Assembly (NCBI GenBank): GCA_024275975.1
Contig: JAJRYC010000038.1
Span: 13,955-77,954, forward strand
Reading direction: 5' to 3'
DNA: 64,000 nucleotides
DNA from: Nitrospirota bacterium
GTDB lineage: Bacteria > Nitrospirota > Thermodesulfovibrionia > Thermodesulfovibrionales > UBA6898
Shown here: positions 7,250-32,607 of the stretch, one piece after another
Position numbering within the stretch: the first letter of the stretch is position 1
Layout of the letters: each line of letters begins with the position of its first letter
The notes under the pieces: generated by a model
The model's input: only the letters and a program-made list of their open reading frames with translations
Told to the model about the DNA's origin: nothing
The model's database searches: none
Program-made: the position numbers and the translations under genes

Positions 7250-7306
7250 GCTATCCTATCAATATTTGTTGAAACAGGCATGCAATATACCGATGTCATG
7301 TCTCCA

Positions 7307-9013
7307 TCATCTCTTTTTTGACCGCATCGCCTTCATTTTATAGTTAGGCTCTGCGTATTCCACTTCAGGTATGAGCGAAAATTCCCGGATAGCGTCTTCC
7401 ACAGTCCGCCCTTCCCCAAGCTTTACAAGATAAACCCTGACATGTTTCATGACCTTAATTACAGACCCGCCTTCCTGGGCGATTATCTCCTCTGCCGCGT
7501 CATTTGTGACGCCTTCCATGAATTTGACCAGAATCTCTCCCTCTACATACTGATTCTCCACTTTAGCGAACTCCTTCTGTTTGCTCTTTGTAATCGAACC
7601 GAGACCCTCCGCGTCCTTGATGACATGTGGGGTGATAAAGATCAAAAGGTTCGTCTTTTTCTTCGAGACGCTTTTGGTCTTAAACAGCCATCCCAGAACA
7701 GGGATATCACCGAGAATAGGCACCTTGGCAAGGTTTTCCTCGTCCCTCTCTTCCATCAGGCCGCCGATTACTACTGTCTGGTTGTCCTTCACAACAACTG
7801 ATGTTCGAGTCGAGCGCTTTGTGGTCGATGGACCGACACTTATAAGGATATCATCGCTGGCGTCCTGCTTTACCGACGATATCTCCTGGTATATATCGAG
7901 CTTTACATAATCTCCCTTCGTAATCTGGGGCGTTATCCTGAGTGTTATTCCGACATCCTTTCTCTCTATCGAGCTTAGGACGGTATTCGCGGTCGTGATG
8001 TCCCGCTCTCTCTTTGAGATGAAGGGCACATTTTCACCGACGATAATCTCCGCCTCCTGGTTGTCCGATGTTAGCAGTTGAGGCGTCGAAAGAACGTTTA
8101 CCGCGCCCCGAAACTCATTCATGCTAAAGAGAGCGGCGAACCCAGGGACGGAAAGAGTTGATTCCACAAGAGACCCATTTGCGTCTATTGTCGTCATGGG
8201 GATATCGAAGTAATTACCCATGCCTCCTCCCGTAAGACCGGTCAACCCGTAGATCAGTGACTGCAGAGCAGACCCATCCATCGTCCCGAATCCTCCTATT
8301 CCGATCGGCTCTCCATTATGAGTCCCCATCACCCTCCATTTTGTCCCGAGTTCCCTTAATTTATCAATTGACGCCTCCACAATCATCGCCTCGACAAATA
8401 CCTGCCTTCTCCTCTTGTCAAGTTGTTTTATGACGCGCACCAGATTTTGATAATCCGAGGGTGACGCAACGATCACCAGGGAATTCGTCGCCTCATCGGC
8501 AGTAATATTTATACCACCGGCTGACTCGAACGGGGTCATCGCCACCCCCCCCTTTTTTGTCTTTTTCCGGGGCGACGCGCCTTTTATTATTCGTGACAGC
8601 ACTTCCGCCAGTTCAGTGGCGTCGGCATTTTCAAGTGTATAGACATTTATCATCCCCTGCGCATCCGGAGAAGGCACGTCAATCGCCGCAATGAGGGATT
8701 TCATCGATTCTCTCCTGCCTTTATCACCAAAGAGTATAACAGCGTTCAGTCTCTGGTCGGCCACTGCCTTTGTCTTTTTCATCCTGGACTGCTTCCCGGG
8801 CGCACCCCTTGCCCTGCTCTGTCCGATGCCTTCATTAATCATCTTCGCGACTGCGTCAGCGCTCGAAAACCTGAGGAAAACAATATCCGGCTCCTCCCTC
8901 AATGAAGGCTGGTCTATTGCATCAATAATCGAGAGTACTTTTTCAATATTAAGCCCTGAATCTATTACAAGAAGCATATTGCCCGGCCCAAAGTCAGAGA
9001 CATAGCCGTTCAT
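7307..9013 (-). CDS. gspD: Secretin GspD, N1-to-C-terminal portion (same gene and frame as 9050-9511), with an extra C-terminal domain
   Basis: Secretin-core blocks VLSTPQLLTSDNQEAEIIVGENVPF, VVIGGLMEE, VPILGDIPVLGWLFK, NLLIFITPHVI. The start at 9013 is in frame with the upstream ORF across two TAG codons. Confidence 0.9.
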   Translation of the reverse strand: MNGYVSDFGPGNMLLVIDSGLNIEKVLSIIDAIDQPSLREEPDIVFLRFSSADAVAKMINEGIGQSRARGAPGKQSRMKKTKAVADQRLNAVILFGDKGRRESMKSLIAAIDVPSPDAQGMINVYTLENADATELAEVLSRIIKGASPRKKTKKGGVAMTPFESAGGINITADEATNSLVIVASPSDYQNLVRVIKQLDKRRRQVFVEAMIVEASIDKLRELGTKWRVMGTHNGEPIGIGGFGTMDGSALQSLIYGLTGLTGGGMGNYFDIPMTTIDANGSLVESTLSVPGFAALFSMNEFRGAVNVLSTPQLLTSDNQEAEIIVGENVPFISKRERDITTANTVLSSIERKDVGITLRITPQITKGDYVKLDIYQEISSVKQDASDDILISVGPSTTKRSTRTSVVVKDNQTVVIGGLMEERDEENLAKVPILGDIPVLGWLFKTKSVSKKKTNLLIFITPHVIKDAEGLGSITKSKQKEFAKVENQYVEGEILVKFMEGVTNDAAEEIIAQEGGSVIKVMKHVRVYLVKLGEGRTVEDAIREFSLIPEVEYAEPNYKMKAMRSKKR

Positions 9014-9049
9014 CTATACAATCGGTTTTATCAGCCTGAGGGCATCGTC

Positions 9050-9511
9050 CTAGGATATATTCTTCAGAGTCATAAGCCTGGCGATATAACTTTCGTTTAC
9101 AGGCTGTCCATCATAAGAAATTTTAATGCCCTTCTGCTTTGCCTCGGCAACAGGAATAATCTTGTAAGCATCCACACCCGATGGCACAACAGTAAAACCT
9201 TTAAGCTCAAGGATGGACGTAAAAAGGTTATACGCGTCATCAACGTTCAGTTTGGAGGGGGCTATTATTGTTATATTTCCCTTCACCCTGTTATCGAAAA
9301 TAAAGTTCTTGCCGGTAATCTCACTTATAAATTTAGTTACTGTAGACAGTTCGACATCCACGAAATTAAAGGTGACCTCTTCGTCTTTTACGGTCTCCGC
9401 AAAGGCTGGTGTGGCGGCAAGGGAGGAAAGAAGAAGGATATATGATAAAACAAGAAACAATAATACAGCAGAAAGATGGAGACTACAGGATAAAACAATA
9501 TTTTTTTTCAC
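9050..9511 (-). CDS. gspD: Secretin GspD, signal peptide + N0 domain portion (ends at an in-frame TAG)
   Basis: Signal peptide followed by the N0 block VTFNFVDVELSTVTKFISEITGKNFIFDNRVKGNITIIAP...AYNLFTSILELKGFTVV. The stop at 9052-9050 is TAG, and the frame continues into 7307-9013. Confidence 0.85.
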   Translation of the reverse strand: MKKNIVLSCSLHLSAVLLFLVLSYILLLSSLAATPAFAETVKDEEVTFNFVDVELSTVTKFISEITGKNFIFDNRVKGNITIIAPSKLNVDDAYNLFTSILELKGFTVVPSGVDAYKIIPVAEAKQKGIKISYDGQPVNESYIARLMTLKNIS

Positions 9512-9586
9512 TTTGTATTGCCCTCGCTTTTCAATAATTTATATACAAGCTGCCGCCGGTTGGTCCAGGGACCGGCATAGGATATT

Positions 9587-10462
9587 TTATTTTATCTGGT
9601 ACGTCATTGTCATCTTCGCGCCATTTCTGATAATGTTCATCCTGACCCGCTCCATACCCCTCAGGGCGGTGAAAGCCTGGAGCGCGTATTCGGGGTTGGA
9701 GATATCAAACTCATTAATCTTCAAAAGAACATCACCGTTCCTGAGGCCGAGACTGTCGTATATCCCCCCTTTTTTGACTTCACGCATAGTATATCCCTGC
9801 TGCCTGCCGTCAACAATATTCGGCAGAAGGCGGGCATCGGTCATCAGGTCCCTCGGATTTTCTATGGCCTGCTGGATCCTTCTCTGATCTATGGAGTAAG
9901 TGGTGGCGTTAATCTTTCTTGTAAATCCAGAGTAGGAACCACGGGACTTGTTTCTCCGGGTCTCCCTTGCAGAGACTATCTCTCTCAGAGGGAGCTCCGT
10001 TATGTTTTCACCTTTTTCTATAACAACCCTGTCTTTTTCGACTTTCCTGAGGATGCCGAGGTTAAAGACGGAATCACCAACCCTGAAAATCTCCTGCTTG
10101 CCCATCTTGGCCATAAAGATAGCATAACTGTCTCTTTCCCGCCCCGCAACAGTGCCGATAAGTATTATGTCACTATCAGACAGCGCGGGCGGTTGATTCG
10201 ATAAAGACCTTAGGTTACCCCCGGGGAATCCAAAGGGATTGTTCTCCAGTATTGATGCGTAAATCTGGAGATTATGATTCGGAAGACTTTCACTCTTTAT
10301 GTCATTAATAACGGCCTTTTTTTCAGGACTGAAAGAAAACGAGACGACATCTCTGATTAAAAAGAGTGTTGCGATGATAAGCAATGCTCCTATTAACGGG
10401 TTAATCAGGGCTACAAGCTTCCGGTTGTTAACAAGAAGATTGTTTAAATTCTGTATTTTCAT
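9587..10462 (-). CDS. gspC: T2SS protein GspC (N-terminal TM, C-terminal PDZ)
   Basis: TM helix LVALINPLIGALLIIATLFLI. PDZ-like C-terminus GIYDSLGLRNGDVLLKINEFDISNPEYALQAF. First gene of the operon. Confidence 0.7.
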   Translation of the reverse strand: MKIQNLNNLLVNNRKLVALINPLIGALLIIATLFLIRDVVSFSFSPEKKAVINDIKSESLPNHNLQIYASILENNPFGFPGGNLRSLSNQPPALSDSDIILIGTVAGRERDSYAIFMAKMGKQEIFRVGDSVFNLGILRKVEKDRVVIEKGENITELPLREIVSARETRRNKSRGSYSGFTRKINATTYSIDQRRIQQAIENPRDLMTDARLLPNIVDGRQQGYTMREVKKGGIYDSLGLRNGDVLLKINEFDISNPEYALQAFTALRGMERVRMNIIRNGAKMTMTYQIK

Positions 10463-10734
10463 TGATAAATTAAGGATAGCAAAAGGAGTTTACCGATGTC
10501 AAAGGATATGCACTGTCGTCGGCTTCCTGAAAAATTGAATAAAACATACGATATTTCTGTTATTATATTCCTATTTTTTTACAGGCTGTTAAACCTGATA
10601 TCAATATGGATAAGCTGAACAACCGTGCGGGGGAAGGGAACGTGGGAATGACCGTGATTAATCTGGTGATAACATATACAAAAACGAAGAGCCAAACATA
10701 CAAGAATTTCAAATATATACAAAGGAGCAAGACA

Positions 10735-11067
10735 ATGAAGAAATATTTTTCAACAGTCTGCCTGATTCTGCTGTTGGGAGGCTGCGTAACAACAAATGGT
10801 CTGAATATTATATCCCCGACATTACCGGAAGATGAAATCGAGGAACATGTAGAGAGAATACTTAGACAGCAATCTCAAGCCGTGCCTCAAGCCGTGCAGG
10901 AAGAGAAGCCGGCAGAGGTCGTAAGAACACCATCCGCCGGGATTTCAGTCCCGGAAAACCCCCAGCCGCATAATTGCGAAACCAGGGATGCCTTGATCAA
11001 TCTACTGATAAAAAAGGGGATTATAACCAGAAAAGAATTGCTTGATGAAGTGCGGAACCTGAAATAA
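10735..11067 (+). CDS. Small lipoprotein, unknown function
   Basis: An internal ATG at 10735 is preceded by AAAGGAG. It gives MKKYFSTVCLILLLGGC, a lipobox with Cys. The track ORF starts at 10606. Confidence 0.45.
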   Translation: MKKYFSTVCLILLLGGCVTTNGLNIISPTLPEDEIEEHVERILRQQSQAVPQAVQEEKPAEVVRTPSAGISVPENPQPHNCETRDALINLLIKKGIITRKELLDEVRNLK

Positions 11068-11430
11068 TTGGAGAAAAATAATTTCAGATCGGGAGAAAGT
11101 TCGAAATAACTGCTTTTCATCTATTTTACGGCGGGGTATTTTCTCTTGACATATTAGCCGAAAGTATATGATCATATCGAAATTTCTTAGTTGATAGTTT
11201 CAGGGTATCTAATAATAAATAAGGTATATCACCGGAGGATTTCCGGGAAACCTCCAAACATGGAATTCCTGGGATGAGATGAAGTATAACGTTGCGATTA
11301 ATAGGTATAAAACTATGTGGAACCGGCAGGGTGACTATATATATAAGGAGGTGACAGGAGGCAGGACATCTGATGATTATTTCTTTTTTGTTAACATATT
11401 ATCAATTAAAGGATGGGAGGATGAGAAAGG

Positions 11431-13119
11431 ATGAATTTTTTGAAGAGCAATAGAAGAAGCCGCATAACATTAATTTTACTATCGTTGTTATTGGTGGTGA
11501 TACCATTATATCTGTATAGCTGCGGCGGTAGTGTCGGCGGCGGATATGACACGTGCGTGGATCCGAAAATCAACGTCCTGGTCGACGCTGACACGCTGAA
11601 TGGCTGGATAACAAACGGATATGGCAGCGATGACAGCAACTGCAACAGGATAGTCGTACTGCATGTCGGCGATGATGCAAGCTATAGCGCAGGGCATGTC
11701 CCCGGAGCCTATCAGCTTACTGATTCTGATTATGCAGCTACCAGGTCTGACGGAGTTAGTGAAACTAATGGAATGGTCGCCACAAAGGCCCAGATGGATG
11801 ATCTCATCCAGAGGACAGGCATAGACGCAAGAACCGTTGTTGTTCTTACCGGACGGTATGCCAGTAGTGCTATGAATATTTACAAACTGACAAGGTCATA
11901 TTTTAACTTCCGTTACTGGGGATTCCCGAGGAACAGGATAAGAGTGCTTGACGGTTTTGTTGACACAACTTGGGCTAATGCAGGTTATGCCGTAGATACC
12001 ACTCCTACCCCGGCCTCGGAGGCCTCCGACTACAGTGTCTGCAGCCTGACACCGGACCCCGACAGATTCAGGGCGCCATTGGAAGAGATGAGGAATATTG
12101 CCATGGATGACGATGTCGCGACTGTTGTTATTGATACGAGGCGCGATGATGAATACAACGCTACTATTAATACTACAGGTGGACCTACATTTTCTGGCTT
12201 TGTTGCATTTGAAGGACATGCAAGGACCGCAGTCCACCAGGAATGGATAAACCTGTTAGATACAGAAATGAGACTCCTTCCGAAGAATGACCTGACATCA
12301 ATATTCACCGGCATAAATGTAGACGAGACCACAACCGCATATCCCTACTGCCGCACAAGTTTCAGGGCGGCTGTCACATTCCTGGCGCTTGACGGCGTCC
12401 TCAACTACCCGGTAAAAATCTATGACGGAGGATGGCTTGAGTGGGGCCAGATGACTTCCACGGCATTGCTGGGCGGTCTAGCAGATACCTCTCCATGGAG
12501 GACTGATTTCATTCCTCTGGGAGACGGAGAGATAATCGACAATAATTCAGACGGAGTGCTGGCCAATGGCTATGAAGATACTTTCGAGGGTGCTTCGTCT
12601 AATACTGGCGGTGCAGACTGTACTGATCTTTATGGTACTGATTTCAGATATGATGGCACTGCGGATGGTGGTTTGGCAACATGGACGCCACAGACATTAT
12701 CAGCCGGTACTTATAATGTGTCCGTATGGCATGTAGCTAAATCCAGTTACTCCACAAACGCGGCATATACCGTAAATCACAATGGTGCTGCCGATAATGT
12801 AACCGTGGATTTAACAGCAAACGGCTGTCAATGGTACAGCATCGGTACATATGACTTTGTGGCTGATGGTGTAACAGTAGAAAATATTACATTGAGTGAT
12901 TCCGGCGCCAGCACCGGTTTTGTAGTTGCCGATGCCGTCAAATTCACTCCCGTAATGCAGTTGACCGAGTCAATCACACATAATACCAATGTTGAGCCAC
13001 TCACCGGTGCTAATTCTTTTGCCTTTCACGCTGACGGCGTGAATACTGAAGATGCCGCGATATGCACATCTGGCGACACAGGTGGCGGCGGCGGTGGTGG
13101 TGCAGCACCAGGATATTAA
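11431..13119 (+). CDS. Exported lipoprotein with rhodanese-like (sulfurtransferase) domains and a C-terminal beta-rich domain
   Basis: Lipobox LYLYSCGG. Rhodanese-type blocks include VVLHVGDDASYSAGHVPGA and a loop Cys, YPYCRTSFRAAVTFLAL. The C-terminal segment (GTYNVSVWHVAKSSYSTNAAYTVNHNG...VADAVKF) resembles golvesin-C-like / amidase-associated domains from memory. Gly-rich tail. Confidence 0.6.
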   Translation: MNFLKSNRRSRITLILLSLLLVVIPLYLYSCGGSVGGGYDTCVDPKINVLVDADTLNGWITNGYGSDDSNCNRIVVLHVGDDASYSAGHVPGAYQLTDSDYAATRSDGVSETNGMVATKAQMDDLIQRTGIDARTVVVLTGRYASSAMNIYKLTRSYFNFRYWGFPRNRIRVLDGFVDTTWANAGYAVDTTPTPASEASDYSVCSLTPDPDRFRAPLEEMRNIAMDDDVATVVIDTRRDDEYNATINTTGGPTFSGFVAFEGHARTAVHQEWINLLDTEMRLLPKNDLTSIFTGINVDETTTAYPYCRTSFRAAVTFLALDGVLNYPVKIYDGGWLEWGQMTSTALLGGLADTSPWRTDFIPLGDGEIIDNNSDGVLANGYEDTFEGASSNTGGADCTDLYGTDFRYDGTADGGLATWTPQTLSAGTYNVSVWHVAKSSYSTNAAYTVNHNGAADNVTVDLTANGCQWYSIGTYDFVADGVTVENITLSDSGASTGFVVADAVKFTPVMQLTESITHNTNVEPLTGANSFAFHADGVNTEDAAICTSGDTGGGGGGGAAPGY

Positions 13120-13131
13120 AAGAATTTAACG

Positions 13132-13434
13132 GTGAGACACGGACTGTTCATCATATTTTTATCTGTCCCATTGATGCTGCTCCTCACCGCAACGGGACCT
13201 CAGGCGAAAGAGATTATAGCCATGGGTCCGGACAGCGGCGACAAGCGGATACAATGGGATGCTAACAAGGATTATGAACAATCCGGTGAAGATTCCGATG
13301 ATAATAGCACGGGGGAGACCCGGCCTTCAAAAGAAGACTGCGGCAGCGGGACTCGGGACGAGTCTCCCCAGGGCTGTTCAGGCGTTCCGGAAAATACAAA
13401 ACCTGAATATGATCTGTCGGATTGCTGCTGTTAG
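13132..13434 (+). CDS. Small secreted acidic protein ending in -DCCC
   Basis: GTG start and a signal-peptide-like N-terminus (RHGLFIIFLSVPLMLLLTATGPQA). Acidic, low-complexity body with C-terminal CCC. No clear SD. Ends at TAG. Confidence 0.35.
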   Translation: MRHGLFIIFLSVPLMLLLTATGPQAKEIIAMGPDSGDKRIQWDANKDYEQSGEDSDDNSTGETRPSKEDCGSGTRDESPQGCSGVPENTKPEYDLSDCCC

Positions 13435-13501
13435 ATTCACAAATGATTTACAGGGAAATATATTATAAATTGAGAAAACTGTTAAGGATGAGGAGGTATT
13501 C

Positions 13502-14152
13502 ATGAGATTCGGAATGAAAAAATGGGGCCTGACGGCTTTAATATTTGCGATGACGTTCGGATTTGGCATACAATCAGTCCAAGCCGGTCCTATGATAAAG
13601 ATAAGTGACCAGTCATGGCTCCTGATTAACTATAGTAGTCAACTTTACGGTGTATGGCGTGACACAGGTTCAGGACCTGACGCCACTGACGACTCCAGCG
13701 ACATCTTCTTCAGGAGAAACAGGCTGACCTTTTTCGGAAAGGCGACAAAGACGCTGAAGTTCAACCTTCAGATCGAACACAAAGGCACCAGGATGATCCA
13801 AAACCTCGGAGTTGATTCTTCACCGGGAGGAGGCCTTGATATCCTTGATGCCTTTTTAATGGCGAAGTATTCCAATGCCTTCAGGCTGAGGCTCGGACTT
13901 ACAAAAGACCCTCTGACCAGGGAAAATAACGAAGGATGTTTCGATCCGCTGACTCTCGACCGGTCGCTGTTCATATACACGCCGTTTCAGGTGTCCCGTG
14001 ACACAGGCTTGGTGGTATGGGGAAATCTGCTCAAAAACAGATTACAGTACAGGGCGAGTATAATGGAAGGCAGGGAGAGCGCCGACACACCCAAGAGCAG
14101 TCTCCGTTATACGGGAAGGGTCCATGTTACGCTGCTTAACCCTGAGTCTTAG
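13502..14152 (+). CDS. Outer-membrane beta-barrel porin (porin O/P-like), N-terminal part ending at an in-frame TAG
   Basis: GAGGAGG RBS, signal peptide MRFGMKKWGLTALIFAMTFGFGIQSVQA, and alternating beta-strand pattern. The frame continues into 14189-14692. Confidence 0.6.
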   Translation: MRFGMKKWGLTALIFAMTFGFGIQSVQAGPMIKISDQSWLLINYSSQLYGVWRDTGSGPDATDDSSDIFFRRNRLTFFGKATKTLKFNLQIEHKGTRMIQNLGVDSSPGGGLDILDAFLMAKYSNAFRLRLGLTKDPLTRENNEGCFDPLTLDRSLFIYTPFQVSRDTGLVVWGNLLKNRLQYRASIMEGRESADTPKSSLRYTGRVHVTLLNPES

Positions 14153-14188
14153 ATCATCTACAGGGGAACTTATCTCGGAAAGAAAAAA

Positions 14189-14692
14189 GTGCTTACACTG
14201 GGCGGTGGCTATCAGTTTGAGCCTGACGTAGCCTATGCGAGCCTTTCAACTCAAGATTTACCCGTGGACAACACAACATGGACAGTTGACGCGTTCTTCG
14301 AGTACCCCACCCCGGCCGGAACATTCACTGTCTCGGGCGCTTATCTTGATGTTGATTTCGATGACGCTTATAAAGGTCCTGATCCTGACCCGGCTGTTTT
14401 TAATGTCCTTGGTGAGAGGAACGGATGGTACGCAAAGGCAGGTTATCTCTTTCCTTCAAAGATCGGTATAGGAAAACTTCAGCTATTCGGTCGTTATGAA
14501 TACTGGAAATTCGCCGAACTTAATGGGATCGGCGACCAGACGATTAAATGGACTGGCCTCGGCATTAACTATCTCATCAACAACCAGAAGTTAAGACTGA
14601 CGGTTGAATACGCCAAGACCGATTATGAAACAGAAGACGCCACGAACAAGGATTTTGATACAGTGACAACGATGGTGCAGTTTATGTTCTAG
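14189..14692 (+). CDS. Outer-membrane beta-barrel porin, C-terminal part (same frame as 13502-14152)
   Basis: The frame is open from 14153. Beta-strand pattern, with a C-terminal beta-signal ending in Phe (TTMVQFMF). It has no signal peptide of its own. Confidence 0.6.
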   Translation: MLTLGGGYQFEPDVAYASLSTQDLPVDNTTWTVDAFFEYPTPAGTFTVSGAYLDVDFDDAYKGPDPDPAVFNVLGERNGWYAKAGYLFPSKIGIGKLQLFGRYEYWKFAELNGIGDQTIKWTGLGINYLINNQKLRLTVEYAKTDYETEDATNKDFDTVTTMVQFMF

Positions 14693-14723
14693 GCCCCAAA
14701 AGCCCGGAGCGATTTTATTCACA

Positions 14724-14760
14724 GGGAAAAGCAGCCTGCCTGCTTTTCCCTTTTTTTATT
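14724..14760 (+). terminator. Rho-independent terminator after the porin gene
   Basis: GGGAAAAGCAG-cctgc-CTGCTTTTCCC (11-bp stem) followed by TTTTTTTATTT. Confidence 0.7.
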
Positions 14761-14823
14761 TATGGCACTGCGGATAACAGCGGAATTCAGCAGCTGGCAT
14801 AAGCGAGTCCGCTGGTTAGGACT

Positions 14824-15014
14824 TTACTTTATTGGTTTTATTCCAATGTCTTTGCAAATCTTTCTTACAATATTATCGTTGATTTCTGAATGCCTTGGAA
14901 TTGATGAGCGTTTGTTTTGACCTGGATTCCACCACCATGAATGACGAGACCGCCCTCTCTGATAAATTCACATCCCTGCGACCGTAGATACTTCAGCAGG
15001 TCATTACGCTTCAT
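14824..15014 (-). pseudogene. hicA: hicA-like toxin, single-base frameshift
   Basis: Frame 1 reads MKRNDLLKYLRSQGCEFIREGG. A second frame reads SRHSWWWNPGQNKRSSIPRHSEINDNIVRKICKDIGIKPIK*. The span is 191 nt, which is not a multiple of 3. The break lies near 14946-14952. Confidence 0.7.
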
Positions 15015-15223
15015 ATCGCAATTTTTTCTTCTACGTATTCCGATCCCCCGGCAGCAATCGCATCTTGACGATTGAATTCCAAAGCCTCTTTCAGTGTAAC
15101 GCGCAGGCTTTCCATTAACTCTTCACGAGTATGTTCCTGGCAGTTCACACCAGGAATTTCCTCTATCCATCCTATCCACCAATCACCTTCCTGCTTTACT
15201 ATGGCAGTATATTCCGTGTTCAT
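15011..15223 (-). CDS. hicB: HicB-family antitoxin (UPF0150-like)
   Basis: 70 aa, MNTEYTAIVKQEGDWWIGWIEEIPGVNCQEHTREELMESLRVTLKEALEF. Its stop overlaps the hicA ATG (ATGA). Confidence 0.75.
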   Translation of the reverse strand: MNTEYTAIVKQEGDWWIGWIEEIPGVNCQEHTREELMESLRVTLKEALEFNRQDAIAAGGSEYVEEKIAI

Positions 15224-15663
15224 ACACTTACTCCTTTTAGATCGTTATATTTATTTTATGTTACCAAATAATATACCCATCCCGCTATCAATTTTATTTC
15301 CATAACAATTTCAATATGTTCTGGATACCCGAAGACCCCCGATCGGAGTCGAGGGCAGGCTTCGGGCATGACAAAAACAAAAAATGGCGATTTATAAACA
15401 GACTCTAATTAGCAATGAGTAATAGTTTTTGCCACTGCATGTATCCGCGGAATTATATCTGTGGTGAAGGAGAATGTACGCTCTTATAACTTTATAGTGG
15501 CAAAAAACCACTGTCTGCTGATATAACAGAAAAGGATAATTATCTCACCATCCCTCTATTTGCGGGAATCTCCAACTTGAAAAATTCAACCTTTTAAAGC
15601 AGTTCTATTGCTATACTTAATGTTTTACCTTCACTTATATCAGCGCATTTAATAATTTCTTTT

Positions 15664-16560
15664 TTAGTTCAGAGTTGCCCGCTCTCTCTTTATGGCATCC
15701 GCGACCCTCGCGACTTTCGCCATCTCTTTAACGTCATGGACACGGACGATGTCCGCGCCTTTTATTATCGAAATCGCCACTGCTGCCGCCGTGCCTTCGA
15801 TCATCTCGCCCGCAGGGGCGCCATCGAGTATGTTTCCGATGAAGGCCTTTCTTGAAGGACCTATGAGCACCGGCTTTTCGAGCATGGTGAATTCATTGAG
15901 GTTATTTATTATCTGAAGGTTATGATCAAACGTCTTTCCGAACCATATTCCGGGATCGATTATAATCATATCATCGGGGATACCGAATTTTTTCGCCAGC
16001 CGGATGCCGGCCCTGAAATAATCCATTATCTCCGGGATGAGGGCCTCGTATTCAGGATTATCCTGCATATTCCTTGGCACACCTTTCATATGCATCATCA
16101 CGACAGGGACCTTATATTCCGAGACGACCATCGGCATTCCGGGGTCGAATCTCATTCCGCTTATGTCATTGACTATCGAGGCACCCGCCTCAATCGCCTG
16201 TTTTGCGACCTCGGCCTTACAGGTATCTATAGAAACCGGTATATCAACTTTCCCTGAAAGCGCTTCGATTACCGGCACTACGCGATCCAGCTCTTCGTCA
16301 ACAGAGACCGGCTCGGAACCTGGCCTTGAGGACTCGCCTCCGATATCAATTATGTCAGCGCCGTCATCAACCATCCTGAGGGCACGATCTACCGCCATTG
16401 ATTTATCGAAATACAGCCCATTCTCAGAAAAGGAATCCGGCGTTACGTTCAGGATTCCCATTATACAGGTCTTTTCAGAAAAGTCTAATGAATAGTTTTT
16501 CCAGGCAAGTCTCAAGTAGCGGGCCTCAAGCCTCGGCGACCCCCTGTAGATCAGCCTCAT
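15664..16560 (-). CDS. folP: Dihydropteroate synthase
   Basis: Pterin-binding blocks [36 protein letters not shown]. Located downstream of ftsH, as is common. Confidence 0.9.
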
Positions 16561-18334
16561 GAATAAGCTGGTCTACCTCCTTCCCGTCCATCGTCTCCTT
16601 TTCAAGGAGTCTCTTCGCAAAGGAATCAAGCAGCGTCTGTTTATCCATAAGAAGGGCCTTCGCGGCCTTATAGGCGTCTAATACGATACGTTTGACCTCT
16701 TCATCAATCTCCGCGGCGGTCTTTTCACTATAGTCCTTGTGCTGTGATATCTCCCGACCGAGGAATATCTGCTCTTCTTTTTTACCAAAAGTGACAGGAC
16801 CAAGCTTATCGCTCATCCCCCATTCCGTTACCATCTTTCTAGCTACGTCGGTGGCGCGTTCAAGGTCGTTGCCGGCGCCTGTCGTCATATGCTTCAGTGC
16901 TATCTCTTCGGCGGCCCTGCCGCCCATGAGAACCTGCAGAGTCTTTATCAGGTATTCCCTTGAATAGGTATATCTTTCATCTATCGGAAGCTGCTGTGTT
17001 ATCCCAAGCGCCCTGCCTCTCGGTATTATACTCACCTTGTGGATAGGGTCCGTGCCGGGTGTAAGCCTTGCGACCAGTGAATGTCCAGCCTCGTGGTACG
17101 CGGTATTCCTATTCTCTTCATCACTTATGATCATGCTCTTTCGCTCCACACCCATCAGAACCTTGTCTTTCGCGGCCTCGAAATCAGAACTCTCCACCTT
17201 GGTCTTTGCGCTTCTGGCCGCGATAAGCGCGGCTTCGTTTATCAGGTTAGCAAGGTCCGCACCGGTAAATCCGGGCGTTCCCCTGGCAATTTTCTCCATG
17301 TCCATATTCTCGTCTATGGGTATGTTTCTTGTATGTACTTTCAGTATCGCGAGTCGCCCCTTGACATCAGGCTGAGGCACCACCACCTGCCTGTCGAACC
17401 TCCCCGGCCTCAACAGGGCGGGGTCGAGCACATCAGGCCTGTTAGTCGCGGCAATGATTATTCTGCCCTCATTGCCTTCAAAGCCGTCCATTTCAACCAA
17501 TAGCTGGTTAAGTGTCTGTTCGCGCTCGTCATGACCTCCTCCGAGTCCGGCCCCTCTGTGTCTTCCGACAGCATCAATCTCGTCGATAAAAATTATACAT
17601 GGCGCGTTCTTCCTGGCCTGTTCAAACAGGTCTCTGACCCTCGATGCGCCGACACCCACAAACATCTCGACAAAATCCGATCCGCTTATGCTGAAAAAAG
17701 GCACACCTGCCTCGCCCGCGATCGCCTTGGCAAGCAGTGTCTTGCCCGTACCGGGCGCGCCGACGATAAGAACTCCCTTTGGTATCCTGCCGCCCAGTTT
17801 CTGGAATTTCTGAGGGTCCTTGAGAAAGTCTATTATCTCCTCCAGCTCCGCCTTCGCCTCTTCTATGCCCGCGACGTCCGCAAAGGTTATTTTTACGGAC
17901 TTTTCAGGAACAAGCCTCGCCCTGGATTTTCCGAAAGACATCGCTTTGTTTCCCCCGCTCTGCATCTGGCGCATGAAAAATATCCAGATTACGGCGATGA
18001 AGATTATAGGTCCCCATGTAAAAAAGAGGTTAATGTACCACGGGTTCTGGTCGGGTGGCTTCACGGTAATTTTTACGTTCTCCGCACGCATTTTCTCGAC
18101 GAGCTCGGGATATTCAGGGGAATACGACCTGAACTTTGTCCCGTCCTTCAAACGGCCTGTAATGGCATTCTCCTTTATCGTAACCTCATCGACATCCCCG
18201 GCATCAAGCATCGTCATAAACTCGGAAAAGATCAGCTCTTCCTGGATCTTTTTCGGAGCGTTTAAAAGATTAATCAGCAGGAGTATCAGTAAAGCAATCA
18301 GCACCCAGATAAATAGATTTTTATATGCAGTCAA
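16526..18334 (-). CDS. ftsH: ATP-dependent zinc metalloprotease FtsH
   Basis: Two N-terminal TMs, Walker [14 protein letters not shown], an SRH region, and the HEAGH zinc motif. Confidence 0.97.
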
Positions 18335-18541
18335 TATTTTCCTCCATAAATTTTATATATTTTAACACACGGAAAACATTATTTTCAGCTATTGGAGAAC
18401 AGTATTGAAATATCCCGGCTGTCATTTCGAATAAAGCGGGAAATCTTTAAAATGACACAACCATGGAATATTGATATACGGATTCTCTCCAGCGATCGGA
18501 AATGTCCGCCGCCTGATCCCGTCCGCTGCCTGAAATACGGT

Positions 18542-19279
18542 TCAGCGCGCCGGGGCACTAAATATATTTTCCAGCATTTCCTTCTGTTTAGAGATCAGTT
18601 CCGAGATGCCTTTTCCAGCTAGAGCGATAAGATCATTCAGTTTTTCCGTTGAAAAAGGCTTGCTTTCGGCCGTGCCCTGGATTTCGACCACATCTCCACT
18701 ACCCGTCATGACTATATTCATATCCACCTCGGCGGAAGAATCCTCCTCATAACAGAGGTCAAGCAACACCTCGTTGTTAACTATCCCGACACTTATAGCG
18801 GCAAGGTAGTCCCTGATCGGATTTTTCTCTATAATACCGTTTTTCAGGGCGTATCCCATTGCATCGGCGAGACAGATGAACGCCCCGGTTATCGCCGCCG
18901 TCCTCGTACCCCCATCGGCCTGTATAACGTCGCAGTCCACCCAGAATGTCCTCTGCCCGGTCAGGTTAAGATCGACGACCGACCTTAATGACCGCCCTAT
19001 GATTCTCTGTATTTCATGTGTCCTGCCGCCTACACGGCCGATGGACGATTCTCTTGAAGTTCTGCTCTGTGTGGCCCTGGGAATCATGGAATATTCAGCT
19101 GTTATCCATCCCCTGTTCTGGTCCCGCAGAAAAGGAGGCACTCTATCCTCTATCGAAGCAGTGCAGATGACCCTTGTCCCGCCCAACTCTATGAGTACGG
19201 AGCCCTCCGCGGTGCTGATAAAATCCCTTGTAATTTTGATGTTTCTCATCTCATCGTTTTTTCTGCCGTCGGTCCGCAT
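18542..19279 (-). CDS. rph: Ribonuclease PH
   Basis: [20 protein letters not shown]..., with [19 protein letters not shown]. Confidence 0.95.
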
Positions 19280-19452
19280 AAATATTATACCTCCATCTCC
19301 ATCTCTATTTTTTTTATAAAATCTATCTTCCTGCCCAAAAAATTCTCGCCGACACTAACAAATCTTTCAGTGGAATCCGTCACGTAAAATTTATGGACAG
19401 CATCATCCGGGCCTGTCCTCCTCAGGGACAGTTCATTCAGAACATTTTTTAC

Positions 19453-20124
19453 CTATCCGGCGGTTTCGACCGCAGAGTCGATGAGGGTGACTGTTTCACT
19501 CATGACCTTTGTTATAACATTCTTCAGGAGAGGATAATGAGTGCATCCGAGCACCAGGGTGTCCACGCACTTGTCCCTGATATTATTCAGGTATGTTTCG
19601 GCTATCATTTCGGCTATTCTGCCTTCAGACCATCCTTCTTCAACAAGGGGGACAAAGAGCGGACAGGCCAGGCTGAATACCTCGACATCACCGTCAACCT
19701 CTTTTATCGCCCTGGTATATGAAGAGCTTTTTATGGTGGCTTCAGTGCCTATCACACCGATTTTTTTATTCTTCGAGCATGAAACAGCAGCCCTCGCGCC
19801 GGGCTTTATGACACCCAACACCGGTACGGGCACGGAACGCCTGATAGCGTCCAGACTTACTGACGATGCTGTGTTGCATGCTATAACGAGCAATTTAATA
19901 TCTTCTGAAATTAGGAACCTGGCGTTCTCGAAAGAGTACCGGGTTACTGTTTCCGGAGACCTTATGCCGTAAGGGACCCTTGCCGTATCCCCGAGATAGA
20001 CGGTATTTTCAAAAGGCAGTTCCCTGAATATCTCCTTTAATACAGTCAGACCTCCAATGCCTGAATCGAATATGCCTATCGGCTTTTCTTTTTTATTCAT
20101 CGGAAAGTCTGCTGCTGTCCTCAT
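19453..20124 (-). CDS. murI: Glutamate racemase MurI (ORF stops at in-frame TAG; conserved C-terminus continues in frame to 19285)
   Basis: [13 protein letters not shown], with catalytic-Cys blocks ACNTAS and GCTHYPLL. After TAG 19455-19453, 55 more in-frame codons encode a MurI-like C-terminus. Confidence 0.9.
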
Positions 20125-20686
20125 ACGCGGTTATAACCGTACTTTTTAATTTATATTTCAGATAAAAATGGCCGCCGAGAGTCTCTATCTCCTTTCCATC
20201 AACAAGTATCTTGAAATCATTGAAGTCCCGCAGATTTGAAATAAGACTCTCATAAATGCCTTTCAGGATCAGATATTCCGAAAGCGCGTCACCCTGGAAA
20301 TTCCTGCGTAATTCATCCGACAAATCTATATAAAGAATATTTTCATCGTCTTTATACAGGCCGAGAAATTTAACATCCTTCGGTATATTGGTTCCGCGCG
20401 AATCCTCATTTCCCTTGAAAAACTCTTCTATAACAGCCTCTGCCAGGGCAATCTGTTTCGTCCGTTTAGGTATTTTTTTCTCGACCATGCGGAGGCCGTC
20501 TTCATCCGGATAATAAATTCTCAGGTAGGAAAAGTCTTCGAACACCGGGAGGCCGTTTTCAGCAGTTATCACGGCATCCGGCTTTCCACGCGGCTGAAAA
20601 ATCTTATCCCGCATAAAGTACATGGAGATAACGCCGATGGATAAAATCAGCAGCAAAAGCCATATCAGGTTCTTTTTACTTTTCAT
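20093..20686 (-). CDS. GerM/GerMN-domain lipoprotein-like protein
   Basis: N-terminal TM or signal sequence. GerMN-like blocks ([11 protein letters not shown]...AVIEEFFKG...LYIDLSDEL...[14 protein letters not shown]). It sits between the amidase gene and murI. Confidence 0.55.
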
Positions 20687-21692
20687 ACGCCGTTATCCCA
20701 TTTTCATAAGCTGCAATACCTTCCATTATCGCCGCTACGAATGCCGCGCGCGTTTTTTTGTTGTATTCATGATATTGCGGAGATGGATATTCTATCAGAA
20801 CGGCCGGTGTGTCCATGGAATTCAGGATCGGGAGGGGCAACTCTTTCAGAACAACATCGACTTCCAGTCCCTTTTTTATGGATTCTCCGATGTTGTAGGC
20901 AAGATCCCTGCTTTTCTCGATATACCTGTTCTGCCTTGAGGACTGCCTGTAGAGCGTAACAATGGCGTCGGCATCCATGTCATTAGTTGATGAAATATAA
21001 ATCCTGCACTTTCCGGTGAAGGATGAATGGATGCTGACAAAAATGTCCGCCCTTTTGCCGTACGAAAATTTTATTCTGCTGTCTATGCTGGAAGCCCTGT
21101 CCACGTTCCGCGTAAAAAATACCTTTTTGCCTTTCCCTGAAAGCGCCCGGCCCAGATCCCGTGCCAGTTTCAGGCTGAGATCCTTCTCTTTTGTTCTGTC
21201 TGAAACAATGCCGTAATCATACCCACCATGTCCCGCGTCTATGGTCAGAGCATCGACAACATTAGTCTTTAAGGCAGGCTGCCCCCCTTTCAGCATCGGG
21301 TTTCCCGAGGAGGTAAGATCAATTACCAGCCTTGGCGGCGTCGAAAGTTTATACACCTTTACATCAGAGATATCTTCCAGATCTATTATCAGGAAACGAC
21401 CCACCTCCATCATATCAAAAAAGAAGCCTTCCTGTTTTTCAAGCAAAAACCTGGAGGGAAATGCTATTTTTATATTGGATAAAGTCGATATAGTGTCTGC
21501 GTTGGCAATAGTATACTTATCGGATTCCAGGACTATCCTTATATTATTTTCATGGCGGCTGAACCTCAGGGATACATTGCTTTTTTCCTCCGCGAACAGG
21601 CTCACCGTTGAAATCAGGCTGATTATAATTATCAAAATTACTTTCTTCACGTTACTATACATTTTCCATATATGAATGAGGTTTTGCAACAT
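20676..21692 (-). CDS. amiC: N-acetylmuramoyl-L-alanine amidase (AMIN domain + Amidase_3)
   Basis: AMIN-like N-terminal domain (LRFSRHENNIRIVLESD...RLVIDL) and catalytic block IDAGHGGYDYG...VSIHSS. The true start may be an internal Met (MYSNVKK). Confidence 0.8.
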   Translation of the reverse strand: MLQNLIHIWKMYSNVKKVILIIIISLISTVSLFAEEKSNVSLRFSRHENNIRIVLESDKYTIANADTISTLSNIKIAFPSRFLLEKQEGFFFDMMEVGRFLIIDLEDISDVKVYKLSTPPRLVIDLTSSGNPMLKGGQPALKTNVVDALTIDAGHGGYDYGIVSDRTKEKDLSLKLARDLGRALSGKGKKVFFTRNVDRASSIDSRIKFSYGKRADIFVSIHSSFTGKCRIYISSTNDMDADAIVTLYRQSSRQNRYIEKSRDLAYNIGESIKKGLEVDVVLKELPLPILNSMDTPAVLIEYPSPQYHEYNKKTRAAFVAAIMEGIAAYENGITAYEK

Positions 21693-22013
21693 ATGGGTAA
21701 TCGGGAATCCAAAACATTATTCAGGATAAAACAATCGCTGGAATACTGGTTGGCAATGGAAAGTACTATTAAATCAGCCGGATACGTAAAAAATCTTCGC
21801 CGGCCGTGACCGTATATTCCTGATCGCACCGACAGTTCCAGGCACCTCAAAATAAAATCCTGCTAAAATGATAAACCATTCGGAATAAAAAGGTATAATT
21901 ACAGAGGAAATATTTATCCAGTGACCCTCCGGATGGATGAGTGGGCGGGCCTTATCACACTGCCAGATCCGATAATAAATTTTATATTTTCGAAAGGAGT
22001 TAATAAACAGGGA

Positions 22014-22721
22014 ATGGAAGATCTCAAAACATCAGAAACATGGCGTGTCTTCAAAATTCAGTCGGAACTTGTTGATGGGTTTGAAACCCTGCATGGCCTC
22101 GGCCCCGCGGTGACCATCTTCGGCAGTTCAAAGCTTATGTCCGGCAACAAATACTATGAGGACGCGGTTACAGTGGCAAAGATGCTTGCAGATGACGGCT
22201 TTGCCATAATTACTGGCGGAGGCCCCGGCATCATGGAAGGCGCAAACAAAGGCGCCAAAAAAGGCAGATCCCAATCTGTCGGTCTTAATATAGATATACC
22301 GGCTGAACAGGCACCGAACATGTACCAGGACATCTCTCTCTCTTTCAGGTATTTTTTTATCAGAAAACTCATGTTCATTAAATATGCCACCGCATATGTA
22401 ATCTTTCCGGGAGGCTTCGGCACAATGGACGAGCTGTTCGATGCCTTAACTCTTTCACAGACCAAAAGAATAGACTCATTCCCCATAATACTATATGGAT
22501 CTGATTACTGGAAGGGACTGATTGACTGGCTGAAAAAAACACTGGTGGCCCAGGGTACAATAAAGAGAGAAGACCTGGCGCTGTTCTCCATGGTCGACAG
22601 CCCGAAAGACGTCCGCTTTCTTGTCAAAGAGCATTTCAGGGTCTTTGGCGGTGTCAAACCCAAACCCAAACCCAAACCCAAACCCAAATACAAATACAAA
22701 AGAATAAAGAAAACGGAATAA
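22014..22721 (+). CDS. LOG-family (TIGR00730-type) nucleotide-binding protein with a KP-repeat tail
   Basis: GGGPGIMEGANKGA and PGGFGTMDELFD motifs. Start placed at MEDLKTSETWRVF; the track ORF opens at GTG 21921. C-terminus KPKPKPKPKPKYKYKRIKKTE. Confidence 0.8.
   Translation: MEDLKTSETWRVFKIQSELVDGFETLHGLGPAVTIFGSSKLMSGNKYYEDAVTVAKMLADDGFAIITGGGPGIMEGANKGAKKGRSQSVGLNIDIPAEQAPNMYQDISLSFRYFFIRKLMFIKYATAYVIFPGGFGTMDELFDALTLSQTKRIDSFPIILYGSDYWKGLIDWLKKTLVAQGTIKREDLALFSMVDSPKDVRFLVKEHFRVFGGVKPKPKPKPKPKYKYKRIKKTE
22656..22697 (+). repeat. Hexanucleotide microsatellite (AAACCC)5(AAATAC)2 inside the LOG gene 3' end
   Basis: Direct reading of the sequence. It encodes the (KP)5(KY)2 tail. Confidence 0.95.
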
Positions 22722-22817
22722 TTCCTGGACCGGCACAATACACTTGCAGGCATATAGAAGCACCCTTTTATTAACGGATGAAAGACATATGGCCGGGAAT
22801 TTAAATCCCGGATGTTC

Positions 22818-24029
22818 TCAGAGCTCAAGCATGCTTTTACCCTTGTTTTCAAGTGAATACCATACAGAGAGATAATCCCTTATCTGTCTGGTTATAAGGA
22901 AATTATTTCTTATATATTCCTTGCCTTCAACGCCCATCCTTTTCGCCATTGCCGGATTTGTAAGGATCTGCCTTATCCTGAATGCCGCCCCTTCAACTGA
23001 ATGGACAAGGAACCCCGTAACACCATGTACGATCTGCAATGGTATTCCACCTGTAGCACCCCCGATTATCGGTTTCCCCTTCCACATGGCTTCCGAGACC
23101 GTAAGACCGAATCCCTCCTTCAGGGATTTCTGAAGAATAACGTCCGCTATTCGCTGCAGTGCGTTTATGTCCTTATCACTAAAAGGCGGCAATAAAAGGA
23201 CATGAATGTCAGGGTCGGAAGCTGCGTGTTCTCTCACTTCCGCTAATACGGCCTCCCCTTCCGGGTCGTCTGTAGCCGGACTTCCCGCAAGGATCAATAT
23301 GCAGTCATTATATCTCTTTACGATTCTGTAAGCTTCAATTACGCCTATGGGATCTTTAAACCTGTCGAATCTCGATACCTGGAGGACTATCGGCCTGTCT
23401 ACGGGTATCCGCAGTCTCTCGATGGTCTCATCAATCTCCTCTTTTGTCAGTTCCCTGTTCTTTTCGCTCAGTGGGTCGATGGAAGGAGGGATAATAAATT
23501 CATCTATAGGCATCGCTTTCGCGAACTTCGCGACGGAGAAGACAGCGGCATCATATTTTTCACAGTATTTCTTGAGATAATCGCAGACTTCCTTGTCCGG
23601 ATTCGCGACATCGATATGGCAGCGCCATATCCACTTTCCGTTTTTCCGGAAGTCGATAAGCGGCACCGGCTGCGGGTCGTGGATTAATACCGCGTCCGCC
23701 TCAAGGTCCAGTCGCTTAAGGTTCCTTCTATTAACCTCGAAATGATACTGCCACATCTCACCTGTGATCTCTTCGGCATTGCCCTGCAGCGCATTATGCA
23801 GTTTTTTGGTTATTTCATAGAATTTTTCGTCACCTTCTAAAACTTCCCATCTCGTTTTCACGCCGAGTTCATTCAGCATGGGTATCATCCTGTGCAATAT
23901 TTCGGCTACTCCGCCCCCTTCACGGGTGGAATTCACATGAAGAAAGGTCCTGCCCTCCAGTTTTTTGCAGATTTTCTGTAAAAGCAGCAGATCACCCTTT
24001 GGGGCCACTCCTATATAATCACTGAGCAT
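22818..24029 (-). CDS. treT: Trehalose synthase TreT-like GT4 glycosyltransferase
   Basis: Blocks recalled from archaeal TreT: FLHVNSTREGGGVAEILH, HNALQG, HDPQP, WRCHID, PPSIDPLSEKN, EGFGLTVSEAMWKGKPIIG. Confidence 0.75.
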   Translation of the reverse strand: MLSDYIGVAPKGDLLLLQKICKKLEGRTFLHVNSTREGGGVAEILHRMIPMLNELGVKTRWEVLEGDEKFYEITKKLHNALQGNAEEITGEMWQYHFEVNRRNLKRLDLEADAVLIHDPQPVPLIDFRKNGKWIWRCHIDVANPDKEVCDYLKKYCEKYDAAVFSVAKFAKAMPIDEFIIPPSIDPLSEKNRELTKEEIDETIERLRIPVDRPIVLQVSRFDRFKDPIGVIEAYRIVKRYNDCILILAGSPATDDPEGEAVLAEVREHAASDPDIHVLLLPPFSDKDINALQRIADVILQKSLKEGFGLTVSEAMWKGKPIIGGATGGIPLQIVHGVTGFLVHSVEGAAFRIRQILTNPAMAKRMGVEGKEYIRNNFLITRQIRDYLSVWYSLENKGKSMLEL

Positions 24030-24742
24030 TATTGTATAACCTCCATTTCCTTCCTGACTTCAGCCTCCACCGCATCCACGATATGCTCTCTTATGCCCTC
24101 TATGCTGTGCATAAAGGGATCAATTGCCTTCAATTTCTCAACAAGTTCATGCTTGCCGAGGACCTGCTCTATCCATAAAGAGAAATCGTCGAACCCGCTT
24201 CCCAGGCGATACCTAGCCTCGTAAAAATGGTAGTATATACATCCAGAATCCACATATTTTATCGCAATCAGGAACTGGGCGAGGTTTTCAACCCTGACGC
24301 CGACGGGAAAAACAACAATTATAGACTCATTGAAATAAAATTCGTCACCGTGGATCGCCTCCCTCGGCTCCGGGAAGCTTTTGAGGTAGTTGTCTATTAT
24401 CTTCAACAGGTTGTTTCTAACACCACTCATCTCTTTGAAGTCATACGGATCCAGGTTTGAGAGCTGCTCTGAAAGCGCCCTTTCCTCCAGGCTCTCCCCG
24501 GCCCAATGGGCAAAGTCATTGGTATATTCGAGAATATGGCCCTTTAAAAAATACTGGTAAGTATGATGAAATATGCATGCATCGCTTGAAGTAGATAAAA
24601 TATCCCTCAGCTCACGCAGACTTTTTGCCTTTTTCCCTGTCGATTTAAGGATACTGACACATTGCCTGAATTCAAAGGCCTTGCTTACTTCTTCGGTAGC
24701 TTCCATGCTCTTCGTGCTTTCCGTAGCTTCTGATTCTTCCAT
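24029..24742 (-). CDS. Conserved hypothetical protein coupled to treT
   Basis: Start at MEESEATE (24742) is preceded by GAGGAGG. Its stop overlaps the treT ATG. I recognise no catalytic motif. It may belong to a DUF family that travels with glycosyltransferases; this is unverified. Confidence 0.5.
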   Translation of the reverse strand: MEESEATESTKSMEATEEVSKAFEFRQCVSILKSTGKKAKSLRELRDILSTSSDACIFHHTYQYFLKGHILEYTNDFAHWAGESLEERALSEQLSNLDPYDFKEMSGVRNNLLKIIDNYLKSFPEPREAIHGDEFYFNESIIVVFPVGVRVENLAQFLIAIKYVDSGCIYYHFYEARYRLGSGFDDFSLWIEQVLGKHELVEKLKAIDPFMHSIEGIREHIVDAVEAEVRKEMEVIQ

Positions 24743-24818
24743 TCCGTCGCCTCCTCGGATAAACTTTTCGGCAAAGCCGCGTATAATTTGCAAATAAAAG
24801 GTTGGTTGAGAAACCGTA

Positions 24819-26078: not shown

Positions 26079-26229
26079 CCAGGCTCCGAATTTATGGTTT
26101 ACAAGTACTTTATTGTATAGTTTATACTTATCATAGTCAATAGGCGGGCAAGCCGCTTTTCATAGTGGTTTTAAAGTATTTTCATAAAATAAACCTTCAG
26201 CTGAATTGTTCCTGGTCTTCCCCCTTACT

Positions 26230-26240
26230 CCCCCCCCCCC
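26230..26240. repeat. Poly-C homopolymer (11 nt) in a divergent intergenic region
   Basis: The sequence reads ...ttactCCCCCCCCCCCtgtc... It lies 137 nt upstream of the GGDEF gene and 152 nt upstream of the M23 gene. Confidence 0.9.
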
Positions 26241-26376
26241 TGTCTTTTTCAGCCTTAAATTTCATTAAATGGAATTTATATTCTATAATATTTTTATATT
26301 CAGCAATAAATTCTTAAATCGGTCATGGGCGGATTAATGAGCTGAACAAAGCTGATTAATCTTTTAACTGGAGAAC

Positions 26377-29489: not shown

Positions 29490-29739
29490 GATTCATTAAT
29501 GAAAGAAAGGCATAGCGCAGAGAGCATAGCGTAACGGATAAAAGATGTTCAATGTTCAACGTTCAATGTTTAAGGCGCAAACAAAAGCAAAGCGTACCAG
29601 ACTAAGGACGAAAAAAAAGCTCAGACAGTCTTGAATTCTTAACGCGTTCAGCCTCGGAATCATCCCTAAAATAATCAAAGGGGAATGAAAAACAATACCT
29701 GCTGATGACAAGAGTAACCCCTTAAGTAAGGGTAAATTA

Positions 29740-29772: not shown

Positions 29773-29791
29773 GTTCAATCAAGCGACTTCT

Positions 29792-31363: not shown

Positions 31364-31372
31364 ATTACCGAA

Positions 31373-32593: not shown

Positions 32594-32607
32594 AATTGCC
32601 CCCGCTA

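Follow-up and report, generated by a model that had tools for sequence, protein, structure and literature searches.

The DNA analyzed here is a 64,000-nucleotide stretch of a Nitrospirota bacterium (the window; assembly GCA_024275975.1, contig JAJRYC010000038.1) in which four in-frame TAG codons interrupt three genes, encoding the type II secretion secretin GspD, an outer-membrane porin and the glutamate racemase MurI. Comparison with related assemblies identified each TAG as the product of a single C:G>A:T transversion that this assembly alone carries. The four TAGs probably represent the nonsense fraction of an unselected, assembly-private layer of G:C>T:A changes that was introduced by damage or artefact, leaving the genes of the organism itself intact. 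All other assemblies of the species have intact copies of gspD, the porin gene and murI, those of the organism itself are almost certainly intact as well, and the sequence comparison provides no evidence that the organism reads UAG as a sense codon.

Four In-Frame TAG Codons and the Sense Codons They Replace

All six frames of the 64 kb window were scanned from stop to stop, the affected loci were translated, gene identity was assigned with Pfam, and transfer RNA (tRNA) and transfer-messenger RNA (tmRNA) genes were sought with ARAGORN. Translation located the four in-frame TAGs where the original prediction, made from the sequence alone, had placed them, i.e., two in gspD, one in the porin gene and one in murI. 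On the minus strand, gspD (7307..9511; 734 codons; Pfam Secretin, Secretin_N and GspD N0) is interrupted at codon 154 (9052-9050) and at codon 166 (9016-9014), each of which was formerly TCG (Ser) and was changed by a coding-strand C>A, seen on the plus strand as G>T at 9051 and 9015, respectively. The gene for the Porin_O_P/ExtI-like outer-membrane porin (13502..14692, plus strand; 396 codons) carries its single interruption at codon 217 (14150-14152), where TCG (Ser) was converted by C>A at 14151, and ends at a natural TAG stop (14690-14692). The murI gene (19285..20124, minus strand; 279 codons; Pfam Asp_Glu_race) is likewise interrupted once, at codon 224 (19455-19453), by conversion of GAG (Glu) through a plus-strand C>A at 19455.

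Seven independent related contigs, including strains that are locally 99.6-100% identical to the window, have sense codons at these sites, namely TCG at the two in gspD and the one in the porin gene and GAG at the one in murI. The assemblies behind these contigs are GCA_006240915.1, Logan SRR14803400 and SRR8443421, ENA ERZ23498652 and the metagenome-assembled genome (MAG) GCA_035873255.1. TCG was found at both gspD sites in L001, L005 and L006 (and also in L093, checked at codon 154 only) and at the porin site in L007, which is 94% identical; GAG was found at the murI site in L002, L003 and L004. A 56-mer spanning the double TAG of gspD had no exact match in species-representative genomes, and its sole match in a degenerate search, the MAG DY22_TVG17_BIN105, carries TCG. 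At the protein level, serine is present in both GspD stop columns in 15 of 15 aligned homologues and at the porin stop position in all 16 homologues and in P0365, and the MurI stop position is occupied by glutamate or alanine among homologues. The sister-strain protein P0361 (NCBI, Logan) otherwise equals the GspD of the window, P0362 (JGI) is identical to it over the first ~430 residues, and P0001 is 95% identical; all three have serine at both stops. The 279-aa MurI protein P0121 is 100% identical to that of the window save for glutamate at the stop. Only four differences separate gspD from its sister-strain counterpart; two of them are the TAGs, and the other two are transitions that leave the amino acid unchanged. 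The original prediction had derived the stops from CAG or TGG by transitions; in fact, three of them arose by TCG>TAG and one by GAG>TAG, all through C:G>A:T transversions.

The six-frame scan revealed no other recognizable gene split by a single stop, in agreement with the earlier observation that internal TAA and TGA codons are absent; pairs of open reading frames (ORFs) in the same frame parted by TAA or TGA are distinct neighboring genes. No further stop-creating differences occurred in the ~41 kb that were compared base by base with sister contigs. As also noted before, the window contains no tRNA gene, ARAGORN finding neither tRNA nor tmRNA. Around the four TAG sites, no shared motif suggestive of methylation or of a systematic miscall was present beyond a 5' T.

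The two envelope genes have features of their own. At its C-terminus (window 7307-7600), the secretin has a Fervidolysin_NPro-like domain (PF22148), which is kept in all Nitrospirota GspD homologues retrieved; a secretin with such a C-terminal domain is an unusual architecture. The porin family is named 'selenite/tellurite reduction operon porin ExtI' by one source (P0352), and the porin gene is located just downstream of a gene for a rhodanese/Golvesin_C protein and a small Cys-rich ORF (...SDCCC) (window 11431-14692), a neighborhood that suggests an ExtI-like chalcogen-handling locus.

A Window-Wide Layer of Private G:C>T:A Substitutions

Homologue searches placed the window in Nitrospirota/Thermodesulfovibrionales and showed that the species has been assembled independently several times. 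Sister-strain contigs were recovered over window positions 3.9-13.5, 14.7-26.1 and 26.0-60.3 kb from GCA_006240915.1 and from the Logan runs SRR14803400 and SRR6439365. A scan of metagenome/JGI data with the enolase gene yielded only relatives of at most 78% identity, too distant for base-level comparison. Identity between the window and the sister-strain contigs is 99.6-99.8% outside a few mosaic tracts of ~5% divergence, and the base-by-base census was carried out on 40.9 kb of near-identical comparison, to which the porin site 14151 was added from L007. The window belongs to a genuinely distinct strain, with ~60 transitions, mostly synonymous, in addition to mosaic recombination tracts.

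A total of 101 private substitutions distinguish the window from the sister contigs. Transitions are balanced, with 29 C>T and 31 T>C changes. The transversions are strongly skewed, as 30 C>A/G>T changes stand against only four in the reverse direction (A>C/T>G; binomial p = 3e-6), and C>G and T>A account for four and three changes, respectively. The directional excess that an 8-oxoguanine (8-oxoG)-type layer would produce is present, C>A/G>T being elevated above its reverse and above the other transversions. The 30 sites lie at 7253, 9015, 9051, 14151, 14871, 15945, 16898, 17111, 17435, 19455, 22442, 22929, 26427, 38155 and 38563 in the first half of the series and at 39826, 40769, 40922, 41077, 41925, 42123, 45712, 48243, 49927, 52160, 52353, 57924, 58020, 58504 and 59686 in the second. 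The layer hence extends over 7253..59686, with 29 of the 30 sites within the 40.9 kb and only 14151 outside.

The changes are spread evenly, at a density of 0.7-0.9 per kb over 7-23, 38-54 and 56-60 kb, and their overall rate is ~0.7 per kb, i.e., ~1.6 per 1000 G:C pairs or ~0.07% of bases. Both strands are affected, with 14 G>T and 16 C>A changes in plus-strand terms. Where a more distant relative is present, it agrees with the sister strain, demonstrating that the change is derived in the window. The layer depends on the 5' base, with 2.4 changes per kb of sites after T, 2.15 after C, 1.1 after G and none at 3634 sites after A. Protein variants with layer changes were found on one 81,389-bp NCBI contig only, whereas those of the sister strain turn up repeatedly, in NCBI, Logan, ENA and JGI data.

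Substitutions are not accompanied by indel noise. There are no indel differences from L090 over 19 kb, and a single one from L002 over 11 kb, which is a 12-bp repeat unit. This copy-number difference, also seen relative to L003, concerns a short tandem repeat of CCCAAA type close to the 3' end of a LOG-family gene (window 22679-22690). Long-read homopolymer error was rejected as a source, given the lack of indel differences from the sister contigs and a hicA frameshift (see below) that is common to the sister strain.

The divergent tracts are located at 3.9-5.3, 11.0-13.5, 29.5-37.8 and 54-56 kb, where the window differs from the sister strain by ~3-5% against a background of 99.7% identity. 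They point either to a strain of mosaic, recombinant structure or to a consensus put together from more than one strain. In addition, neighboring bases are changed together with respect to the sister strain in TCC>GAC (Ser>Asp) at 42122-42123 and ACG>GTA (Thr>Val) at 42662-42664, which look like single multi-base events or micro-recombination.

The Layer Is Blind to Coding Consequence

Among the C>A/G>T changes, 15 are missense, four create a stop, nine are synonymous and two are intergenic. Random C>A/G>T changes on these genes would be expected to be missense in 63%, synonymous in 19%, nonsense in 8.3% and intergenic in 10% of cases. In contrast, the transitions comprise 41 synonymous and 12 missense changes and no stops, a highly significant difference from the C>A class (Fisher p = 1e-4, odds ratio 7.2). 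The transitions behave as real strain polymorphism, and the C>A layer is unselected and blind to coding consequence.

The missense changes include several at residues that are invariant or highly conserved within their families. In folP, GGG>TGG (C>A at 15945) replaces Gly206 by Trp in the DPG-x-G-F motif of dihydropteroate synthase (DHPS), so that the window reads DPGIWFGK where L002, L003 and PDB homologues have glycine. In the [NiFe]-hydrogenase large subunit, AGA>ATA (C>A at 59686) leads to Arg352Ile in the EAPRG motif; the window reads EVPIG, and three aligned PDB sulfhydrogenase alpha subunits have arginine. The ftsH change AAG>AAT (C>A at 17111) replaces Lys408 by Asn shortly before the HEAGH zinc motif; L002, L003 and L004 have lysine, which is probably conserved beyond these three close relatives. 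A LOG-family protein carries GAG>GAT (G>T at 22442), i.e., Glu174Asp, which turns ELFE of the PGGFGT..ELFE motif, with its probably conserved glutamate, into ELFD. A presumably conserved glycine in the N-terminal segment of YtxH is also replaced by a layer change. In mutS, TTC>TTA (C>A at 39826) substitutes Phe670, present as phenylalanine in the PDB MutS alignment, by leucine, so that DRIFTR of the DRIFTRIGA motif reads DRILTR. MutS (window 37817-40450) carries a second private missense change of the layer, S113R; since loss of MutS gives transitions, the MutS changes are passengers and not the cause of the layer.

The number of stops was compared with a context-weighted model in which the observed 5'-base dependence of the layer was applied to all genes of the window. 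For the whole window, the model gives ~48 hits with 5.4 stops expected, against four observed. The predicted mix of stops is 46% TAA, 36% TAG and 18% TGA. Among stops that are TAG, 26% are supplied by TCG and 74% by GAG. Over the first 17 kb, stops had seemed enriched among the private changes (3 of 11 C>A), an excess that vanished when a further 24 kb of comparison brought out the missense bulk.

UAG Serves as an Ordinary Terminator

Eight genes had been listed as naturally ending in TAG, and all of these terminators are present (13432, 14690, 29792, 34937, 35183, 47229, 49977 and 56433). Save for the junction between the ThiS and NIL genes, the extensions that would result from reading through them look non-coding, and no hidden extensions were found. 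The TAG at that junction had been taken for a genuine stop, and the sister strain supports this with separate gene calls of 92 and 78 aa; more generally, the sister-strain calls at TAG-ended genes have the same lengths (523, 92, 78, 261, 209 and 275 aa). TAG accounts for 10 of 58 ORF ends, the four interruptions included, and is not depleted as a terminator.

Close relatives do not share the TAGs at conserved sense positions, as the seven related contigs have TCG or GAG. The rejection of wholesale UAG reassignment in the original prediction is therefore borne out by the sense codons of the sister strain and by the ordinary TAG terminators. Its first-ranked option, amber suppression or readthrough, has not found positive support, the sister assemblies having sense codons at all four sites. 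When the TAG sites are compared with insertion of a single residue, as by a supD-like suppressor, three of the four are invariant serines, and the fourth is variable between Glu and Ala. Other deleterious classes of change are not purged, missense at invariant residues being kept at the neutral proportion. Missense members of the private G:C>T:A layer, which replace invariant residues, are beyond rescue by any suppressor and lend amber suppression or readthrough no support, and suppression is not needed to explain the stops.

Other Lesions in the Window

The window also contains a HicAB toxin-antitoxin pair (14865-15223, minus strand). HicB is intact (70 aa, 15223-15011), and hicA is split between frames at ~14865-15014 on the minus strand, with the break at ...REGG|SRHSWWWNP.... 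The split had been attributed to a homopolymer indel introduced by sequencing error. However, the sister-strain contig L002 aligns to this region without indel, and the frameshift is thus common to the sister strain and real; hicA is a genuine pseudogene rather than an assembly error. The pseudopilin gene gspI (start at 3267, minus strand) displays an apparent frameshift, a GGGG>GGG contraction at 3245-3243, just before the GFTLLEV prepilin motif.

Origin of the Layer and Alternative Explanations

We infer that the layer stems from damage or artefact rather than from mutation in vivo. Because 8-oxoG-type lesions of guanine pair with A, they would be read or copied as T. Such a lesion opposite the middle base of TCG, or at the first base of GAG, would yield TAG. 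Most likely, the changes became part of the consensus at the stage of sampling, library preparation, amplification or assembly, e.g., from an oxidized template represented by few independent molecules; a library of low input or high duplication, amplification from a single cell or very shallow sequencing could each have provided such a bottleneck. Under this mechanism, the absence of TAA and TGA would be a coincidence in a process that yields TAG ~36% of the time. A damage or artefact origin is favored because the layer is untouched by selection even in murI, folP and at catalytic residues, because its rate would mean thousands of changes and a few hundred premature stops per few-Mb genome, because its alleles occur in no other dataset, and because there is no indel noise relative to the sister strain, which fits base damage in short reads and not long-read error. 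The original prediction had offered a mutational signature, variants or errors in the consensus as an option, which holds in spirit, although the proposed transition type is wrong. It had also considered sequencing error less likely for substitutions; however, a substitution-only, G>T-specific and indel-free pattern is the classic error profile of oxidative damage.

Several points weigh against this origin. Consensus-level damage at 7e-4 per base is unusual for an ordinary deep-coverage metagenome assembly. The observed context is Y[C>A]N with no change at A[C>A]N, and CCG is not singled out, C[C>A]G being the context that is reportedly emphasized for shearing artefacts. The probability that all four stops are TAG is 0.017 in the context-weighted model (0.009 with an unweighted codon-usage model), a modest coincidence noticed post hoc. 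At least three of four stops deriving from TCG has a probability of ~0.056 given that all are TAG and of ~0.002-0.003 unconditionally, and all four stops lie inside 10.4 kb of the 64 kb window despite the uniform layer. An amber suppressor that inserts serine would give precisely this TAG-only, TCG-rich and clustered pattern. Being at the 1-6% level and noticed post hoc, the coincidences among the stops do not suffice to displace the simple model, yet because of them a small share of our confidence was kept on suppression.

Among the alternatives, genuine mutation in vivo, in a hypermutator lineage or cell defective in the guanine oxidation (GO) system (mutY/mutM type) or under heavy oxidative damage, would mean that gspD, the porin gene and murI are truly inactivated. 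Its spectrum would match that of MutY-deficient strains, which according to PMC10995721 'generated mostly C>A transversions', and the uniformity of the layer, its presence on both strands and the lack of accompanying indels are compatible with such an origin, as is the lineage-specific history that a distinct strain with mosaic tracts may well have; the apparent gspI frameshift further adds to the lesions in the type II secretion operon. We nevertheless consider this explanation unlikely, as the genome-wide load extrapolated above, the stop in murI and the replaced catalytic or invariant residues in DHPS, the hydrogenase and MutS would all have to be real, the stop count equals the neutral expectation with even lethal classes unpurged, unlike the consensus of a free-living population, and the protein variants of the layer occur nowhere else. 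Neither mutY nor mutM is located within the window. Far less probable is that such a background is combined with a Ser-inserting amber suppressor, a tRNA-Ser with its anticodon changed from CGA to CUA, itself one G>T, which would keep the genes functional. In such a GO-defective lineage, the TAGs would be read as serine and persist in murI, while TAA and TGA would be purged, a scenario to which we likewise assign only a very small probability. All four stops being TAG, three of them at serines invariant among homologues that serine insertion would restore exactly and the fourth at a Glu/Ala-variable surface position of MurI, is in line with suppression, as are the normally essential role of murI and the low multinomial probability (P ~1e-3) of three TCG- and one GAG-derived stops without TAA or TGA under the unselected model. 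However, invariant-residue missense in the same layer is beyond rescue and selection is evidently not acting; suppression should leave ~1/5 of the stop-creating changes, whereas the stop total is not below neutral; and seven or eight ordinary TAG terminators show neither avoidance nor back-up, the window holds no tRNA, and all remaining assemblies of the species encode an amino acid at the four sites.

Positive selection for the loss of surface structures that serve as phage or toxin receptors, sweeping nonsense alleles of the secretin, pseudopilin and porin, would account for three of the four stops and the apparent gspI frameshift affecting envelope components and for stops making up two of only four gspD differences. 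It leaves murI, the window-wide missense layer and the TAG-only pattern unexplained, the second gspD stop adds nothing 12 codons after the first, and the stop count is already neutral; we regard it as slightly less probable still than suppression. Reassignment or natural readthrough of UAG, by pyrrolysine, loss of release factor 1 (RF1) or a code-15-like change, has as its sole support that every internal stop is TAG and is effectively excluded: conspecific strains of 99.6-100% local identity have Ser at the gspD and porin sites and Glu at the murI site, TAG ends ~8 of 58 genes, with non-coding extensions and at the positions of the sister-strain calls, and the TAG positions match two different amino acids. 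Ordinary pseudogenization, with mixed lesions common to close strains and relaxed ratios of nonsynonymous to synonymous change (dN/dS) confined to the affected genes, was rejected, as the lesions are strain-private and the missense load is window-wide.

Implications and Comparison With Known Systems

If the layer indeed reflects damage or artefact, a public metagenome-derived contig with ~0.07% damage-type G:C>T:A substitutions and replaced catalytic residues calls for caution. The split genes have already left fragment 'proteins' in sequence databases (P0002, P0123, P0364 and P0366), and a handful of stops drawn from such a layer can look like the recoding of one particular codon. Damage and recoding are quickly told apart by comparing sister strains and by examining the directional spectrum and dN/dS per substitution class. 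Should a Ser-inserting suppressor exist after all, the window would show UAG coming to be read as Ser in nature, an early stage of recoding brought about by mutation pressure.

Natural UAG recoding, as with pyrrolysine or in phages with TAG recoded to Gln, shares with the window the in-frame TAGs in otherwise intact genes; here, in contrast, the TAGs are strain-private, TAG is still a terminator, the positions correspond to both Ser and Glu, and no recoding machinery was seen in the window. Amber suppression of the supD type in Escherichia coli is due to serU, a tRNA-Ser altered from CGA to CUA. The window resembles this system in having TAG in place of the serine codon TCG at three of four sites and in that the suppressor itself would arise by the G>T class; it differs in that no suppressor tRNA was observed within the window, in the missense changes that suppression could not rescue and in sister strains without the TAGs. 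GO hypermutators, as described in PMC10995721 and by Foster et al. cited there, likewise show dominant C>A changes, a recent dN/dS of ~1 and accumulating nonsense alleles. Known natural and laboratory mutators spare essential genes, however, whereas here murI, folP and catalytic residues are changed at the neutral rate. Oxidative damage during DNA handling and library preparation leads to artefactual G>T/C>A calls, as described by Costello et al. (2013; PMC3616734). With such OxoG artefacts the layer has in common an excess that is exclusively C:G>A:T, the absence of indels, blindness to coding and the lack of support in independent datasets; the difference is that the classic artefacts are calls of low allele fraction in deep data, whereas the changes described here stand in an assembly consensus.

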